From IMG/VR virus record IMGVR_UViG_3300045257_000113, positions 1 to 52,349 of that record: 52,349 nt of DNA; one strand, written 5' to 3'. Origin of the DNA: a virus. Its lineage: Duplodnaviria > Caudoviricetes. Under the pieces are notes generated by a model, which worked only from the letters and a program-made list of their open reading frames with translations, did no database searches and was not told the DNA's origin. The number at the start of each line of letters is the position of its first letter. The first letter of the stretch is position 1. Both the position numbers and the translations under genes were made by a program. Shown piece after piece: positions 655 to 41,081 of the stretch.

Positions 655-1638
655 GTGAGCGTAAAAAGCAATCAGTACAGTTCCGGTGGGCTCACTCAGG
701 ACACCGCTCGTGGTCCGTCTCAGGCTCTCTGGGATGATTGCCCTCTTGAGGACATGATTCAGTCGTTCGGCGGTGGCGTCGGCACGGCTGGGTATCTGGT
801 GCAGGACGACTTCTGTCCCATAGCGACCCCTTCTGTCCTTGCTGCGATTGGTCAATTGGGCCAATGGGCTACGTGGGCTGCCACGGGAACCACGATCACG
901 GATGGCGCCAGCGAAGGCGGTGTGGCCAAGATCAATGGCACCACCACCAACAAGGCTTGCATCCTCACCAGCAATGCGGGCATGTTCCGCATGGTGGGGG
1001 CCACAGCGAACTTCAGCCTGTACGGCAAGCTGTGGTTTGAATGCCGTCTGGCGCTAGGTTCGGTGGCAGCTAGTCAGCAGGGCGTCTTTATTGGGTTGGC
1101 CGACAACACGGGTTCCCAGATCAACTCTGTGGACACGACGATCATCGCCGCAGGCGGCAACACCCTCACCACGACGAAGAACGTCTTTGGCTTGTTTAAC
1201 CGGACAACGACTTGCCCCAACGACTTCAGCGTTGTTTACCAGCCGGCCGCGGGTACGGCGGTTTACCCGACGAACCTTACTACGCTGGTCAACACGGTGG
1301 TCGGGACGCCGATGGTTGCCTGGGCGGCCGGTACAGATCAGAACGCAACGGGCTTCGTGAAGCTCGGCTTCGTGTTCGATCCAACCGTGTCCAATCTGCC
1401 CAAAGTCATCAGTTCGGCGTCGACAGGCCAGACGGCGGGCACGCTGAACAAGCCGCTGATTCAGTTCTTTGTTAACGGGCAACTGGCACCGGCCTTCTTG
1501 ACCTCGACGAACCTTCAGGCCACGGCGTTCCCGGTCAACTGCTGCTGGAGCCCGGTGATCGAGTATTTCAACGTCGCTGGCGCCACGGCCCCGATCTACG
1601 TGGACTGGATTCGGATTGCCCAGCTCGCAACTATTTAA
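655..1638 (+). CDS. Virion structural protein (beta-rich, possible capsid decoration)
   Basis: 327 aa, rich in Thr/Gly/Ala, ends ...IYVDWIRIAQ, lies just downstream of the capsid gene; GGAG SD. Confidence 0.6.
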   Translation: MSVKSNQYSSGGLTQDTARGPSQALWDDCPLEDMIQSFGGGVGTAGYLVQDDFCPIATPSVLAAIGQLGQWATWAATGTTITDGASEGGVAKINGTTTNKACILTSNAGMFRMVGATANFSLYGKLWFECRLALGSVAASQQGVFIGLADNTGSQINSVDTTIIAAGGNTLTTTKNVFGLFNRTTTCPNDFSVVYQPAAGTAVYPTNLTTLVNTVVGTPMVAWAAGTDQNATGFVKLGFVFDPTVSNLPKVISSASTGQTAGTLNKPLIQFFVNGQLAPAFLTSTNLQATAFPVNCCWSPVIEYFNVAGATAPIYVDWIRIAQLATI

Positions 1639-15288: not shown

Positions 15289-15528
15289 ATGACCTGCAAA
15301 GAGTTTTGGGAGATTTCATCCAAGGGGCCTGTTGCCTTACTTCCTTCGGAGATTTTTTGGTGTTTTAGTCACTACGACTCTTGCAGTGCGTGTCGAAATG
15401 AAGTGATTAAGGCCAGGGACGCCACCACGGGAGCGGTCAGAGAAAGAATCGAATGGGAAGCGTCTTATTCTATCGCAAAAATGGCGCGAGCAAAGGCTTT
15501 AGATCCGGAGTTGCAACATGTCCGTTGA
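15289..15528 (+). CDS. zf-HC2 (anti-sigma zinc finger)-like small protein
   Basis: MTCKEF...HYDSCSAC fits MxC...HxxxCxxC; GAGGTG SD. Confidence 0.6.
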   Translation: MTCKEFWEISSKGPVALLPSEIFWCFSHYDSCSACRNEVIKARDATTGAVRERIEWEASYSIAKMARAKALDPELQHVR

Positions 15529-16837
15529 CTATGCCCTCGACGATCCTCTCCCGCCGACAGCCTTGATGCAGGATGCCCAGCAGGGTAACGTGTCGCAGAG
15601 CCAGGTCCCCGCCTTTGCGGACTCGCCTAGAGGCCCGACTGCCCCAGCTCAGAGTTTCGATCAGTACATCCAGTCTGCCCCCTTCGGCCAAGCCGACATT
15701 CAGCGCATCAACCAACTTCAGGCCGGCCTCTCGGGGCTCGACAAACAGGTGATGTCTGGAGAACTCCACCCCGTTGAGGCGCAGGCCCCAAAGCGAGAGA
15801 TCATGGGGCAGCTTGGCCCCTTGCTCCAAAAGAAGCAGCAATCCCAGCAGAAGATGATGCAAGAACAGGCGCAGCAGGCCATGCACGCGGCGGCGATGCA
15901 GGCTGGGGTTGAGAACGTCAACCGGCAGGTGCAGGCAGAGGCTATTCCTTCGCTCATCAGGACGCATACCGATCCGGTGACGGGCGAGACCATGCACCTT
16001 GTTCGAGATCACAAGGGGGATGTTGAGGAACTGAAATTTGAGCGGGAGGCGGCCAACAAGGACCGCATCACGCAGTCCCAGGCCGAGCCGGTTGCGGAAG
16101 AAGGACCGCCAGCCGGAACAGGAGATCAGCCAGACGGTTCGTTTATCCAGCGGATTCGCAACGGCGATCAGTACGAGTTTCACCGCTTCACACCGCGCCC
16201 AGGCGGCGGGTTTGAGACCCAGCCGATTGGGCAAGGCCAGCAAATGCCAGGCGGTCAACTCTCGGCTGGGGCGTTGCAAGAGATCTTCCGCCGTGCCGAC
16301 CAGGCTGTGCCTCAGCCCAAAGGTCAGGGGCCGGGAGGTAGGTTTCTTAACCCACGCATGGCGGCACTGGCGCAGCAACAGAGGAGAGCGGCAGTCGAGT
16401 CGCTGGCTCATTCGATGGTTAACGATGCCCAGCGCGTCCAGGAACATCAGCGGCACGAGACTTCGATGTCGGCAGAACGACAGCGGGCCGAAGCAGAGCG
16501 GCGTTCCCAGATGCAAGAAAAGTTGCAGGAGCAACAACGGCAGAAGCACAAGGACCATGTCGAGGACTACCTGAAGCACGAGAAGGCTTTGACGCGGACA
16601 GAGGATGGCAAGGTTCATTACCCGACGCATGAAGAGATCGTTCAGCACATGAAGAACGCCGAAAAGGCAAAGACGGAATTGGAGGGCCAGAGGCCGGCCG
16701 CCGAAGCTCCAGAGCAAAAACAGAAGTTTGATGATCTCGTGAAGACGCTGATCGCTGCCCCACCAGCTCCTACGGTGCAACCCAAACCGCCGTCAACGCA
16801 TGTCATTCGAGATCCGGGCGAAATGCCTGGGTTCTAG
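15518..16837 (+). CDS. Putative internal virion / ejection protein (Gln-rich coiled coil)
   Basis: 439 aa, helical and Gln/Glu-rich, immediately before the giant protein. Confidence 0.55.
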   Translation: MSVDYALDDPLPPTALMQDAQQGNVSQSQVPAFADSPRGPTAPAQSFDQYIQSAPFGQADIQRINQLQAGLSGLDKQVMSGELHPVEAQAPKREIMGQLGPLLQKKQQSQQKMMQEQAQQAMHAAAMQAGVENVNRQVQAEAIPSLIRTHTDPVTGETMHLVRDHKGDVEELKFEREAANKDRITQSQAEPVAEEGPPAGTGDQPDGSFIQRIRNGDQYEFHRFTPRPGGGFETQPIGQGQQMPGGQLSAGALQEIFRRADQAVPQPKGQGPGGRFLNPRMAALAQQQRRAAVESLAHSMVNDAQRVQEHQRHETSMSAERQRAEAERRSQMQEKLQEQQRQKHKDHVEDYLKHEKALTRTEDGKVHYPTHEEIVQHMKNAEKAKTELEGQRPAAEAPEQKQKFDDLVKTLIAAPPAPTVQPKPPSTHVIRDPGEMPGF

Positions 16838-29868: not shown

Positions 29869-30753
29869 TCAAACGCCGCACATTCCTTGACACTCTTCCG
29901 TCAGGCCGAAGCTTTTCTCTTTCGGCTTCAGCTCCACCATATCCAGCGGCACCATCGAGCGGTGCAGGTACAGTTCCCCGACCATGCCTTCCTTGCCGAA
30001 CTTCTCGAATGCGTTCCGCCGAGCGGCGGAACGCATTGCGTAATCGAACTCTACCGCGTTTTGCCACTCTTCAGGGTTGGCCTTGATCGAAGCCCACTCG
30101 GCATCAGAGTGAAACGGACAGCCAATGCAGGCTGAACGAGGAACATGACGACCCGGATAGTTTGCTTCCAACCAATCTAGGCAGTCTTGGCGGGTGTAGC
30201 CGTGCTCGATAAAGCTGCCTTGCTTCATGATCGTTACATCCGTGATTAGCGGGTAGCGGTGAACCTTCCAGGGTTCGCGTGACTGCCTCATGCGATGCAT
30301 CTCGTCGTAGCTGATGCCAAACCACTGCTCAATTACGACCTCGCGGGGTGATCGTTGACGAGGCTTGAGACCAAGAATGTGCCGCTTAATGAACAACTCG
30401 ATAGGCTCGATCTTGTATTCCGTGGTGCATTGACGGCGAACAATGCCCTGGCTGTCGTCCTTGTTTTTAACAAAGAACGGCATCGACGCAAAGCGTCGAT
30501 GGTCCGCAGACTTTCGATGCTCTCGAAAAGAAATGCTTTCTTCACGCAGGTTGCCAGCGCTAACGACGTGGATTGGTATACCATACTTTGCTGCTTCTTC
30601 TATCAGCCATGCCAAATGGACGTAGACGGCTTTTGGTTCCCACTCGGTATCGGCGAAGATAGCGGCATCGAGTTTCGGCAAGTCACCCTTGCAGGACATG
30701 AGCAGCGCCGTGCTTGATTGCACACCGGCCCCAAGTGACAGCACCTTAATCAT
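29869..30753 (-). CDS. PAPS-reductase-like adenine nucleotide alpha-hydrolase (PP-loop) family protein
   Basis: VLSLGAGVQSS PP-loop, IFADTEWEP, RQCTTEYKIEPI, SACIGCPFH, C-terminal ECQGMC. Confidence 0.85.
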   Translation of the reverse strand: MIKVLSLGAGVQSSTALLMSCKGDLPKLDAAIFADTEWEPKAVYVHLAWLIEEAAKYGIPIHVVSAGNLREESISFREHRKSADHRRFASMPFFVKNKDDSQGIVRRQCTTEYKIEPIELFIKRHILGLKPRQRSPREVVIEQWFGISYDEMHRMRQSREPWKVHRYPLITDVTIMKQGSFIEHGYTRQDCLDWLEANYPGRHVPRSACIGCPFHSDAEWASIKANPEEWQNAVEFDYAMRSAARRNAFEKFGKEGMVGELYLHRSMVPLDMVELKPKEKSFGLTEECQGMCGV

Positions 30754-37024: not shown

Positions 37025-37259
37025 CGGTCTTCCTTTCCTGGGTAACGGCCAGGGCTTCGGGATCGGCCATGATCGCTGCTAAGTCTTGAGCAGCTTGAAT
37101 CGCGTATCCCAAAATCTGCAACGCTGAACGGGTCGCCAAAAGGCTGTCGCAAAATCGCAGGCATGACCGGCAACCCATCGTGTGCCGAATCATGGCGGCA
37201 ATTGTAGCCCTGCTTTGGTTGCCCTTACCGCGCATCGCTTGGAACTCTTCACAGGTCAT
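37017..37259 (-). CDS. zf-HC2 (anti-sigma zinc finger)-like small protein
   Basis: MTCEEF...HTMGCRSC; AGGAGG SD. Confidence 0.6.
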   Translation of the reverse strand: MTCEEFQAMRGKGNQSRATIAAMIRHTMGCRSCLRFCDSLLATRSALQILGYAIQAAQDLAAIMADPEALAVTQERKTDA

Positions 37260-38119
37260 GGGATTGCCTCCTGGGGCTGTTTGAGCGGTTTCTTTCGGAC
37301 CGATCCTAAAGTTTTTTCGTATTCACTGGGCGGCAAGTGCCGCATGCTGTCGATCTTCAGCGCGGCACAGGCTCGCTTCAGGCCATCAGGGGTGATCTCC
37401 CGCTTTTCGATTTCGGCCGAGAGTTCGTCGTACTGGGCCTGGGTGATGTATTGGCCGTTCTCGATGATCTCGCCATCGCTGGTTGTCGCTGGTGTGGCCT
37501 GCTCGATCTTACCTGTCATCTCGCCGAGCAGCTTGCGGAACTTCGGGTAGAACTCTTCGAGGGCGGCTCGGAGCTTGGCCGTGAAATCGTCCTCAGTCAC
37601 GCGCACGAGCAAAGCCGGCAAGCCTGGGGCGTAGGAAACGAAGTCTACCCACTTCCGCCCGGTAACGATCAATTCACCGTGAACCTGGGGCTTGTACTCG
37701 GCTGGAAGGATCTGCCCCGCCATGAGGTACTCGGCATGAGTCGAAGCATTCGGACATTTCAGCTCGAGCGCTCCGTCACCGTTTACCAGTCCGTCTGGAG
37801 AGCAGCCGAACCGCTTGTCATCCGTCATGCAGAATCCACCGTTGGTGACATTGACGCTGTGATGAGCGGCATACCACCGACGCGCCGACTCTTCGCACTC
37901 TTGCCCCCAGCGCACGGCCCGATTGGTAAACGACTCGGCGTGTTCTGGATAGTAGGGGCTCGTCACGTCGCCGATCAGTTGGGCGGCATACTTCGTCCAC
38001 TGCTTCGATAACTCGCCCTTGGCCGGCGTGATGATCTTGTCGAACTCGCTCGCCGTGGGGATGCCGCGGCGAAGCGTATGCCAGGTTGGCGAGCCTTGCT
38101 CAACGTCGTAAAAGATCAC
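37256..38119 (-). CDS. YqaJ / lambda-exonuclease family nuclease
   Basis: EQGSPTWHTLRRGIPTASEF, GCSPDGLV, LELKCP, YKPQVHG; GTG start overlaps the ERF stop. Confidence 0.92.
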   Translation of the reverse strand: MIFYDVEQGSPTWHTLRRGIPTASEFDKIITPAKGELSKQWTKYAAQLIGDVTSPYYPEHAESFTNRAVRWGQECEESARRWYAAHHSVNVTNGGFCMTDDKRFGCSPDGLVNGDGALELKCPNASTHAEYLMAGQILPAEYKPQVHGELIVTGRKWVDFVSYAPGLPALLVRVTEDDFTAKLRAALEEFYPKFRKLLGEMTGKIEQATPATTSDGEIIENGQYITQAQYDELSAEIEKREITPDGLKRACAALKIDSMRHLPPSEYEKTLGSVRKKPLKQPQEAIP

Positions 38120-38877
38120 TTCTTGCCTGCCTTCCTCTTCGCCGCCTGCCACTCGGCGCGGTACTGCCCCATGATCGTCTCGTATTGAACCTTGGTCAGA
38201 TTCTCCAAGGCATCGAGCTTGAGCCACTTGAAATAGTCTGCCCGGTCAAAGGCAAGCGTGCGGAGAAGGTCGTCAACTTCCTTGAGTTGGTTTTCATCCG
38301 CCATTGCTGTGCGGTTTCCATCATTGTCCTCGCCGGCAATCGTCAGGTTGAAGATCCAGGTCACAAGCCGGCGCTGCCCGTAGCTCCCTGTTGAGACGGC
38401 CCCTTGCACTGCGTTCATTCCGCCAATCGGGTTCCCCTTGGGACCGATCCCATCAACCGGCAGATCAACCTGTGCGTGGTCGATGTGGCCTTCGACGTGG
38501 CGGATCGTACAAATCGTCCGCTTGTGATTTGGTAGCGGCGAGTCGGCCTCGCTAAATGACAGGCTGAAGCCATGCCTGGTGTAAACCGGCTTGGCTACCT
38601 TCTGGACCGTCTCCAGCTTGGCGTACATGGATTTGGTTTGGTCGTTCGTAGCGTCACGGACAACGATTTCCATTTCGGCCTGGGCGTCACGCATCGAACA
38701 GTTGTAGGCGGCCAGTGCACGAGCCGCTTCGAGCCGCTCATGCAAGCCGACGAGTTTTTCCAGTTCAGCGGCCGGCAGTTTCAATTCGACGGCTCGTTCG
38801 ATAATCGCCAGGCTGCCCTTCTGATGGACAGGCGGCTTGTCGGGCAAGGCATCAGTTACTTCTGGTTCTACTGTCAT
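38116..38877 (-). CDS. erf: ERF-family single-strand annealing protein
   Basis: YAKLETV...HGFSL, QGAVSTGSYGQRRL...FNL..GEDNDG. Confidence 0.85.
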   Translation of the reverse strand: MTVEPEVTDALPDKPPVHQKGSLAIIERAVELKLPAAELEKLVGLHERLEAARALAAYNCSMRDAQAEMEIVVRDATNDQTKSMYAKLETVQKVAKPVYTRHGFSLSFSEADSPLPNHKRTICTIRHVEGHIDHAQVDLPVDGIGPKGNPIGGMNAVQGAVSTGSYGQRRLVTWIFNLTIAGEDNDGNRTAMADENQLKEVDDLLRTLAFDRADYFKWLKLDALENLTKVQYETIMGQYRAEWQAAKRKAGKK

Positions 38878-38894
38878 GGGTTGGCCTCGTGGGG

Positions 38895-39215
38895 TTAGGC
38901 GGTTGGTTGTTCTTGTAACGCTTTGACTTCGTGATCGGCGAGAATCTTGCCGTAGCGCAGAAGCGAGTCGATCATCCATTCATAGCCGCAGAACCCAGCC
39001 GACTTCTTGCGGATCTGCGCTGCGTCCGATTTGCTGACTTCGCGAACTCGGACGCACGCACACCAGCCATCGGACCATCGGTAAGTGTGCGAGCCGATTA
39101 ACTCGGCTGGTATGTCACGCAGACTGCGGATCACAGCCCATAGTCGATCTTCACCGGACCATTTGCCATTCCACGACGGCGCGGAAGGCATGGTCAACGA
39201 AAAACAAACGAGCAT
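38895..39215 (-). CDS. Phage hypothetical protein
   Basis: MP..SWNGKWSG...YRWSDGW...GFCGYEWMIDS; GGAGG SD. Confidence 0.75.
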   Translation of the reverse strand: MLVCFSLTMPSAPSWNGKWSGEDRLWAVIRSLRDIPAELIGSHTYRWSDGWCACVRVREVSKSDAAQIRKKSAGFCGYEWMIDSLLRYGKILADHEVKALQEQPTA

Positions 39216-39238
39216 GGTTGGCCTCCAGGGTTAGAGAA

Positions 39239-39309
39239 AGTGGACATCCGGCGTTGACCCGGAACCCCCGCTTAGCAGCGGAATGCTACTGCCCTTACAC
39301 CATGCCCAC
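39239..39309 (-). tRNA. tRNA-like gene with a 4-nt (anticodon-deleted) loop; no encoded CCA
   Basis: GUGGGCA/UGUCCAC acceptor, U8, GUGU/GCAU D-stem with GG in the loop, CCGCU-GCUA-AGCGG, GGGU variable region, UCCGG-GUCAACG-CCGGA T-arm. Confidence 0.65.
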
Positions 39310-39317
39310 AAATCGAG

Positions 39318-39680
39318 TCAATCACGGTATCGGTCAGGGTCGGGCTCACTTGCCTCTGCGTGCTCAGCCACGTACTGTTGCAGCCGGTCAATCAGATTAT
39401 CGTCATTGTCGATTTGCTTGAGCATCGCGCGGCGCTCTTCATCCGTGGCAGTACGGCCGATCTCACCAATGGCCGTATGAAGCACACGGATGTTTTGCAG
39501 TTCGATCTCGCCGCCCTCAGCAGGGTCGCCAGGGTCGCTAGAATGCGGCTGGTACATGGTCGCTGGCGTGAACTCGCTGATCGAGTAATCCAGGCCAAGG
39601 GTAATGGAGCAGAGTTCCCCGCGAAACTCGAACTCCTCGTCTTCCCATTCCAGGTGTCCAGAAAATGCTGGTCGTTTCAT
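39318..39680 (-). CDS. Acidic hypothetical protein
   Basis: GGGAG SD, ATGA coupling. Confidence 0.7.
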   Translation of the reverse strand: MKRPAFSGHLEWEDEEFEFRGELCSITLGLDYSISEFTPATMYQPHSSDPGDPAEGGEIELQNIRVLHTAIGEIGRTATDEERRAMLKQIDNDDNLIDRLQQYVAEHAEASEPDPDRYRD

Positions 39681-39865
39681 GCTCCGCTCCCTTCTGCTGG
39701 CTCATCTTGGTAGTACCGCTCCTCGATCTCCTGCGAGCTGAGTAGCGGCTGTCCATGGCTCTCACGCCAGTCGTTGATCGCTTGGGCGCGTTGCAGGATC
39801 TTCTCGTCCTCGACGATCTTGGCACGGGCTAGTTCCTGCCGGTTGCGTTCATCGGTCAGAGACAT
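39677..39865 (-). CDS. Hypothetical protein
   Basis: GAGGAG SD. Confidence 0.65.
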   Translation of the reverse strand: MSLTDERNRQELARAKIVEDEKILQRAQAINDWRESHGQPLLSSQEIEERYYQDEPAEGSGA

Positions 39866-40046
39866 TCGATTCCTCCTCGGAGTGAAACGCCAGCATTTGC
39901 CTCAAAAAAACACGCTCGGTAGCAAACTCGGCTCCATTGTGGGACCAGTGCTCAAGCTTCACCAAAAGCTGCGCTGCGAATAGTCGCCATTGCCTACTCT
40001 CTCGTTGCAGCGATGCTACCAGGTCGCCTAGGGTCATGTCGGTCAT
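39849..40046 (-). CDS. Hypothetical protein
   Basis: AAAGGAGG SD before MTDMTLG. Confidence 0.6.
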   Translation of the reverse strand: MTDMTLGDLVASLQRESRQWRLFAAQLLVKLEHWSHNGAEFATERVFLRQMLAFHSEEESNVSDR

Positions 40047-40323: not shown

Positions 40324-40373
40324 GGCGTTCCTCGCGGTGTTAAATCACTCTCGACGAAAGCGGCCTTCCCTTC

Positions 40374-40765
40374 GGCATCCCTATCCTAAACAGGGCTTTG
40401 CTCTGGCTGGTGATTCCTCTAGCCGTTTCCGAGCACGTCACTGTAGCAAAGAGAGGGCGCCGGCTTATGCCTTTAGGGATGCCATTAGGACCCAGGACGT
40501 AGGCCGCATTGCAGGATCAACTACCTGCCCGGAGCTCTGGGATTTCGCCGTGCCTCTACACCCGCGCTGGGTAACAGCGCGTCTACTTCCACGGGTCGGG
40601 CCAATCCGTGGCGCGGTCCGCTTTTCGCCGGCAGCGGTCCGTGATCTTAACCGTGGCAGCACAGGTCCAAGATTTGGCTTGCAATGTGTTGTGAACATGA
40701 TAAGCTGATCTCGTCTGTGCTTGCCGCACCGAACTCGGGCCAGGGGTATTACCAACCTCTGGCCC
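40374..40765. ncRNA. Candidate large structured non-coding region
   Basis: No credible ORF; dense stems, including GGCATCCCTA/TAGGGATGCC, CTTTGCT/AGCAAAG, GCAGG/CCTGC, CGCGCTG/CAGCGCG, CCACGG/CCGTGG, AGCACAG/CTGTGCT and GGGCCAG/CTGGCCC. Confidence 0.5.
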
Positions 40766-40794
40766 TTCCGTTTTATCCTCACCTTAAAGCAAAA

Positions 40795-41013
40795 TCAAGT
40801 CGAACTGCCCGGCTCTGGCAATGGGTCAAGCCCGGCTGCCAGTTCGGTCACGAACTTTGCCATTTGCCGCCGCACTGCTTGGATGGGCCATTCGCACCCG
40901 TCAAGCACGAAAGCTTCGGCTTCCCCGCCTATGTTGATCTGCCAGGGCTTTAGCGGCCACGCTGGGCTATTGCGGAACCAATCCTCAACGGCTTGTTCTA
41001 ATGTGCGTTGCAT
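40795..41013 (-). CDS. Hypothetical protein
   Basis: GAAAGGGG SD before MQRTLEQ. Confidence 0.6.
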   Translation of the reverse strand: MQRTLEQAVEDWFRNSPAWPLKPWQINIGGEAEAFVLDGCEWPIQAVRRQMAKFVTELAAGLDPLPEPGSST

Positions 41014-41032: not shown

Positions 41033-41067
41033 AAAACCCCCTGCCCTCTCGGCTGAGCGGCAGGGGG
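41033..41067 (-). terminator. Rho-independent terminator candidate
   Basis: CCCCCTGCC/GGCAGGGGG 9-bp stem followed by TTTT on the - strand. Confidence 0.6.
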
Positions 41068-41081
41068 CGAACATGAGGAAG

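Follow-up and report, generated by a model that had tools for sequence, protein, structure and literature searches.

A Putative tRNA-Derived Element without an Anticodon in a Phage Early Operon: Processing Signal or Relic?

The window analyzed here, an IMG/VR virus record of 52,349 bases from an uncultivated soil phage that is estimated to be 69% complete, carries a 71-nt tRNA-like cloverleaf on its minus strand, between two early open reading frames (ORFs) and upstream of a set of recombination genes. All stems of this element are paired, and its anticodon loop is reduced to four nucleotides. From its sequence we conclude that the element derives from a tRNA rather than from a chance fold, and that it cannot decode, because its loop (4 nt, or 6 nt in an alternative register) has no anticodon frame. 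The best reading, which we hold tentatively, is that it resembles the t-elements of organelles and may mark an early transcript for processing by RNase P and RNase Z; that it is the unselected remnant of a dead tRNA gene is nearly as likely.

Results

Anatomy of the Element

Read on the minus strand, the element shows the four arms of a tRNA, with a short spacer before it and a short trailer behind it.

39239..39309, minus strand: tRNA-like cloverleaf of 71 nt, with 39239 as the discriminator U; recognized by reading of the sequence, Rfam model RF00005, ARAGORN with pseudogene thresholds (-ps), and a three-stem scan
39303..39309, minus strand: 5' strand of the acceptor stem, paired with 39240-39246; 7 bp, one G.U
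39283..39300, minus strand: D arm; 4-bp stem with two G.U, 10-nt loop with A14, A15, GG, and A21
39268..39281, minus strand: anticodon arm; 5-bp stem and 4-nt loop GCUA (39273-39276), 14 nt against the usual 17
39247..39263, minus strand: T arm; 5-bp stem and 7-nt loop GUCAACG (G54, U55, C56, A57, A58)
39310..39317, minus strand: spacer of 8 nt from the stop codon of the 120-aa ORF to G1 of the element; position -1 is U
39216..39238, minus strand: U/C-rich trailer of 23 nt, in which a Shine-Dalgarno sequence, GGAGG (39222-39226), precedes the ATG of the 106-aa ORF by 6 nt

The acceptor stem (GUGGGCA/UGUCCAC) is followed by U8 and G9, the D stem (GUGU/GCAU) encloses the loop AAGGGCAGUA, and a single base, U at position 26, precedes the anticodon stem (CCGCU/AGCGG); a 4-nt variable region (GGGU) leads on to the T stem (UCCGG/CCGGA) with its closing pair G53-C61. 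Pair 1-72 is G-C, and the 3' end consists of the discriminator U, CCA not being encoded. Pairing is complete in the four stems (21 of 21 pairs; 7 + 4 + 5 + 5 bp), with three pairs of the G.U type; these three, located in the acceptor and D stems, become C.A mismatches if the opposite strand is read.

Bases of the tRNA core and elbow are retained at U8, A14, A15 with U48, G18-G19, A21, G53-C61, U55, C56, A57, and A58. The sole exceptions to the conserved core are G54, which stands in place of U54/T54, and the loss of three bases from the anticodon loop; all departures from a canonical tRNA are confined to unpaired positions. The loop GCUA has no U33/R37 frame and falls short of the canonical 7 nt, and the segment from the D stem to the T stem is three bases shorter than in the shortest normal tRNA, whichever register is chosen for the anticodon arm. 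U54 is near-universal in tRNA; a G at this position should weaken the T loop. The features that the earlier note on this DNA had listed, among them a GCUA loop exactly three nucleotides short and a G at position 54, are all present on the minus strand from 39309 to 39239. Its description of the element as tRNA-derived, non-decoding, and fully paired likewise agrees with the RF00005 alignment given below, the length of the loop, and the 21 of 21 pairs.

Detection and Chance Expectation

A structure of this kind could have no tRNA-related function, being either an intercistronic rod-shaped hairpin (an RNase III-type site or an mRNA stabilizer) or a cloverleaf that arose by chance; we regard this reading as improbable. 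The alignment to the tRNA family argues against it: positions 1-71 of RF00005 align over their full length to exactly 39239-39309 on the minus strand, with 24.0 bits against a gathering score of 29. The E-value of this match is 0.0022 in a search space of 101 nt × 2 strands × 4227 families, or approximately 3e-4 when rescaled (our own arithmetic) to the tRNA family alone and both strands of the whole window; by the same kind of rescaling, some 24-bit matches are expected by chance across very many windows, a point in favor of coincidence. The match emerges only in the 101-nt search, where the filters are lax. A search of the whole window at the gathering score reported no family, an 801-nt E-value search around the element did not place tRNA among its matches, and a genome search with the RF00005 model gave 0 candidates at a first look. 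The only other match listed in the 101-nt search was to a microRNA family (E = 3.9), and no Rfam family apart from tRNA, Y RNA and tmRNA included, matched credibly.

ARAGORN, which the earlier note had put forward as a check, gave a divided answer. At default settings it was silent over the whole window (0 tRNA genes, no tmRNA). With pseudogene thresholds it called the element, as 'tRNA-?(ct)', in a register that differs by one base in the anticodon arm, where the loop UGCUAA has 6 nt, nucleotide 26 is absent, and the variable region is down to 3 nt. The specificity of this relaxed mode is poor: of 100 dinucleotide-shuffled versions of the window, 16 gave a call (0.16 matches per shuffled window), which again speaks for coincidence. 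Elsewhere in the window the same mode reported a second candidate, 'tRNA-???', of 94 nt at 16141-16234 (minus strand); it overlaps long ORFs (15518-16837, plus strand) and is most likely a false positive.

A more restrictive scan for three stems (a 7-bp acceptor; a 5-bp anticodon stem, its loop free to vary from 3 to 9 nt; and a 5-bp T stem closed by a 7-nt loop; at most one G.U per stem) returned a single match in the window, the element itself. In 300 dinucleotide-shuffled windows, nine matches were obtained (0.03 per window), distributed over eight shuffles, and a U-C-R-A T loop was present in just one of the nine; over 298,225 bases of other phage loci there were 0 matches. The rarity of such matches among shuffles, the presence of the D-loop and T-loop contact bases, and the exact fit of the element to an intergenic gap on the transcribed strand all weigh against a rod hairpin or a chance cloverleaf.

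Predicted Folding

The 71-mer is more stable than its shuffles (z = -2.87; 1 of 200 shuffles was equally good); its 141-nt context shows no such excess of stability (z = 0.17). As a simple hairpin function would have it, the fold of lowest energy is an extended rod: a nearest-neighbor model places the rod at -31.3 kcal/mol and the cloverleaf at -26.0 kcal/mol, a difference of 5.3. In the ensemble, pair probabilities are high for the acceptor (0.95-1.0) and the anticodon stem (0.97-1.0) and at most 0.02 for the D and T stems (approximately 0 for the D stem). This preference for the rod is not decisive, because two genuine tRNAs were folded as controls and one of them likewise did not adopt a cloverleaf as its minimum-energy structure. 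Support for a three-dimensional tRNA shape is indirect.

The centroid fold of the 141-nt context contains an additional pairing, in which positions 39300-39307 (the acceptor 5' strand plus U8-G10) can form 8 bp with positions 39210-39217, the region of the start codon of the 106-aa ORF, on the minus strand. Through this pairing, translation of the 106-aa ORF could be linked to the way in which the element folds or is processed, or the pairing could be due to chance (the context z-score being 0.17).

Sample and Assembly

The region occurs in a single public run, a DNA data set from a soil metagenome and probably the source sample; no RNA run contains it. The earlier note had allowed that the short loop might be an assembly error. 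This does not appear to be the case: an independently built Logan contig of that run, which is a second assembly and not an independent sample, is identical from 38700 to 39900, with no differing letter, no gap, and a word depth of 8.6. Because the two assemblies agree, the short loop is not a slip of one assembler.

Operon Setting and Neighboring Genes

Codon-position G+C patterns indicate that the minus-strand genes from approximately 42.8 kb down to approximately 28 kb are tightly packed, most of them abutting or overlapping. This early run has two clear gaps, one of 102 nt at 39216-39317 and one of approximately 470 nt at 40324-40794. The 71-nt element nearly fills the first, on the same strand as the operon, and lies upstream of an Erf/exonuclease recombination module.

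39318..39680, minus strand: upstream ORF, 120 aa, acidic, of no known family
38895..39215, minus strand: downstream ORF, 106 aa, from a widespread family of hypothetical phage proteins without a convincing match to solved structures
38116..38979, minus strand: Erf-like single-strand annealing protein (Pfam ERF, 2.4e-08; phrog_155, 9.7e-24)
37256..38227, minus strand: YqaJ/RecE-like recombination exonuclease (Pfam YqaJ, 1e-23; phrog_149, 4e-36)
29869-30753, minus strand: PAPS-reductase-like gene at the distal end of the early operon (phrog_424, 1e-41)

The true start of the Erf-like gene is probably an internal ATG downstream of 38895, and a RusA-like resolvase is encoded farther along the operon. 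No relatives of the 120-aa ORF were found in viral, metagenome, or genome collections. The 106-aa ORF has homologs at 23 + 77 + 2 loci, with at most 55% identity, and none of 46 related proteins carries an informative name; the family has invariant Trp/Gly-rich motifs and matches no Pfam or PHROG family. An AlphaFold model of the 106-aa protein is confident (pLDDT 91.5) and shows an alpha/beta fold. Comparison of this model with solved structures gave nothing at E ≤ 0.001 (Foldseek against the PDB) and a best Z of 3.9 in a wide VIA-align search; a sequence-profile search of the PDB gave a best E of 0.11, and all matches in the Atlas scored below 0.8.

A consensus scan predicted no promoter-like or terminator-like site in the gap at 39216-39317, so read-through transcription is the default expectation. 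An intrinsic terminator in the element itself was rejected as well: there is no T-run after the T-arm hairpin, and the scan lists no terminator in the gap. The gap does not appear to be coding, as no minus-strand ORF spans it and the two plus-strand ORFs that cross it lack the codon-position G+C pattern of real genes. A phage attachment site (attP) or tRNA-fragment integration core was also discarded, because the cloverleaf is whole and stands in mid-operon, and because a scan of 40 early-region ORFs gave no match to an integrase family.

Two other places in the early run drew attention. The longer gap, at 40324-40794 (minus strand), contains no ORF with the codon-position G+C pattern of its neighbors; no credible Rfam family and no blastn match in GenBank phages were found for it, and folding gave a z-score of only -1.2. 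A regulatory region, an origin, or an unrecognized RNA could lie here. At 41033-41068 (minus strand), directly after a 241-aa ORF, there is a G+C-rich hairpin with arms of 9-10 nt followed by TTTT; in sequence it resembles an intrinsic terminator, placed within the early operon, and it is absent from the consensus terminator scan. A 72-aa ORF with its own ribosome-binding site begins just after this hairpin, at 41013.

Search for Relatives

In the collections searched, nothing closely related to the phage turned up (the best match of the large terminase has 47% identity, that of Erf 36%), and no relative of the element was recovered. Exact-pattern scans of IMG/VR, one with a 28-mer covering the T arm and acceptor and one with a pattern of D loop plus T loop, gave 0 matches each. 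Neither the 71-mer (blastn, E ≤ 10) nor its 1-kb surroundings (blastn) had a match among 50,697 GenBank phage records; the element is therefore not a recent duplicate of a common phage tRNA.

A covariance model built from the element (R1) detected no second copy in the window and, at E ≤ 1, matched none of 25 related viral records searched in full. Its single match in another 84 loci (189,019 bases), in locus L078 (14 bits, E = 0.49), was dismissed as noise on account of its location on the opposite strand, the mismatches in its stems, and a 21-nt insert.

The surroundings of the 106-aa homologs offer few parallels. Their upstream regions are unrelated to the window, and another window gene is common to only 6 of 104 such loci. 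Among 102 loci scanned with ARAGORN (default and -ps) and the three-stem scan, one alone bears tRNAs; loci L104-L110 were searched with R1 only. The tRNA-bearing locus, L046, lies on a metagenome contig of 31% G+C and encodes a genuine tRNA-Glu(UUC) and tRNA-Tyr(GUA) at 1319-1485 (plus strand), which end 15 nt upstream of a 106-aa homolog on the same strand. This single coincidence is suggestive; it shows that a tRNA can lead the 106-aa gene.

Discussion

A Possible Processing Signal

In the reading that we tentatively prefer, a phage tRNA gene would have given rise to an element without decoding ability, which is presumably transcribed within the minus-strand early polycistronic RNA. The acceptor stem, the T arm, and the elbow formed by the D and T loops would still present the shape that is recognized by the tRNA-maturation enzymes of the host. 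RNase P may then cut at the 5' end, between 39310 and 39309; the 3' cut, at the discriminator (39239) or immediately beyond it, may be made by RNase Z or a different nuclease that matures 3' ends. Such cuts would set the small early genes upstream apart from the message that follows, for the 106-aa protein, Erf, and exonuclease, and that message would keep a short leader with its Shine-Dalgarno sequence; through this tRNA-like punctuation, the two halves of the operon could gain independent ends and stabilities, and the cloverleaf shape would be maintained by selection.

Several details of the anatomy match such a signal. The element lies on the strand of the operon and fits the gap; it also has a U at -1, G1 paired with C72, and a trailer that is rich in U and lacks CCA, three features favored by RNase P and RNase Z. 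Other observations count against a signal: G54, the predicted preference for the rod, the ordinary stability of the 141-nt context, and the score below the Rfam cut-off. Of the functions that had been proposed in the earlier note, the processing signal fits this anatomy, and the decoy drew no support from the present analysis. In plant mitochondria, according to Forner et al. (2007, PMC1920247), non-canonical cloverleaves direct cuts by RNase P and RNase Z that make mRNA ends.

Signal or Relic

The principal alternative is a tRNA gene that died on losing part of its anticodon loop and gaining G54, and that persists as an unselected relic, with any cleavage being incidental. Much of what is seen accords with this history. 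The score is below threshold (24.0 against 29 bits) and default ARAGORN is silent; the two defects lie in the most functionally critical loops; the element is a single copy in one genome, with no conserved relatives found; and tRNA genes do occur at such a site in another phage locus (L046). Set against this are the 21 of 21 intact stem pairs and the tertiary-contact bases, which are kept everywhere except at position 54, together with the lack of a blastn match in GenBank phages at E ≤ 10 and the tight packing of the operon, which suggests that useless DNA is not long tolerated there.

The loop itself also counts against simple decay. By enumeration, no single deletion of three adjacent nucleotides turns a canonical Y-U-NNN-R-N loop into GCUA; judged by sequence, the loop change and G54 amount to at least two or three events from a working tRNA, with 42 paired positions spared and no single simple deletion to explain the loop. 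By our own arithmetic, the chance that random changes all miss the stems (29 of the 71 nt are unpaired) ranges from approximately 0.17 for two changes to 0.03 for four. The intact stems are a hint of constraint, weak as evidence and short of proof. One copy, in a phage for which no relatives are known, cannot by itself decide between signal and relic.

A more ambitious version of the processing reading, which we consider rather unlikely, makes the element a selected, anticodon-less tRNA mimic, one of a recurrent class of phage look-alikes, not described in the open-access literature and preprints surveyed, that would be excised from early transcripts by host tRNA-maturation enzymes. Such a mimic would punctuate the message or, after release and possibly with a CCA tail, would occupy host factors that bind the tRNA body.

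A Decoy for tRNA-Directed Defenses

Anticodon nucleases read the anticodon loop, and a tRNA-like element without a cleavable 7-nt loop, located in an early operon, invites comparison with antiphage defense. The element might, once processed, titrate a host defense or toxin directed at tRNA, either an anticodon nuclease or an enzyme whose target is the acceptor or CCA end; it has no anticodon loop through which it could itself be inactivated. In support, phage tRNAs have been proposed or shown to counter tRNA-targeting defenses, both those that escape anticodon nucleases (van den Berg et al. 2023, PMC10264068) and the tRNA-Lys of T5 acting against PARIS (Burman et al. 2024, PMC11464382). The answers described there are working, cleavage-resistant replacement tRNAs, not non-decoding decoys. 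They resemble the element in being phage-encoded and in having an altered anticodon loop; they differ in that they keep a 7-nt loop and decode, whereas the element, lacking an anticodon, could have an effect only through binding. With the loop that anticodon nucleases read missing here, affinity should be poor. CCA is not encoded, and a Pfam scan of the 40 early-region ORFs found no tRNA-repair, ligase, kinase, CCA-adding, or tRNA-related family (0 of 40). A decoy or sponge is, in our estimation, very improbable.

Comparison with Known tRNA-Like RNAs

With canonical tRNAs (RF00005), the element shares a 71-nt cloverleaf of four arms, the core bases, the 4-nt variable region, and the discriminator base; it differs in its 14-nt anticodon arm (17 nt in tRNAs), in G54, in a score below the cut-off, and in the lack of decoding. 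Non-decoding cut sites for RNase P and RNase Z inside longer transcripts are represented by mascRNA (from MALAT1) and by the tRNA-like units of the TMERs of murid gammaherpesvirus; these belong to eukaryotic or animal-virus systems and have no sequence relationship to the phage element. Some Y RNAs are phage-encoded; in these a long Ro-binding helix replaces the anticodon arm and an rsr gene is found nearby. YrlA, a tRNA-like Y RNA of bacteria and phages (Chen et al. 2014, PMC4201824), resembles the element as a non-decoding tRNA mimic. Where Y RNAs have their helix, the phage element has a short closed arm in the place of the anticodon arm.

The t-elements are the precedent for the preferred reading as a processing signal. 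Like the phage element, they are non-canonical cloverleaves with a good acceptor and T arm that stand directly beside protein-coding genes (Forner et al. 2007, PMC1920247); they are part of a longer transcript, as the phage element would be. They are organellar and have mapped RNA ends, and the phage element was read from DNA; the T loop of the latter also departs from GGTTCRANYCC, the conserved motif used to find t-elements (PMC1920247). A survey of the open-access literature and preprints found tRNA-like processing elements in organelles and archaea and none for phage genomes.

If the element is merely a dead tRNA gene, it is ordinary. If its shape has been selected, phages would be using the tRNA-trimming enzymes of their hosts to cut their own early messages, a mechanism known from organelles and from a few eukaryotic and animal-virus RNAs, and the sub-threshold 'broken tRNAs' of phage genomes would deserve annotation as RNA elements.
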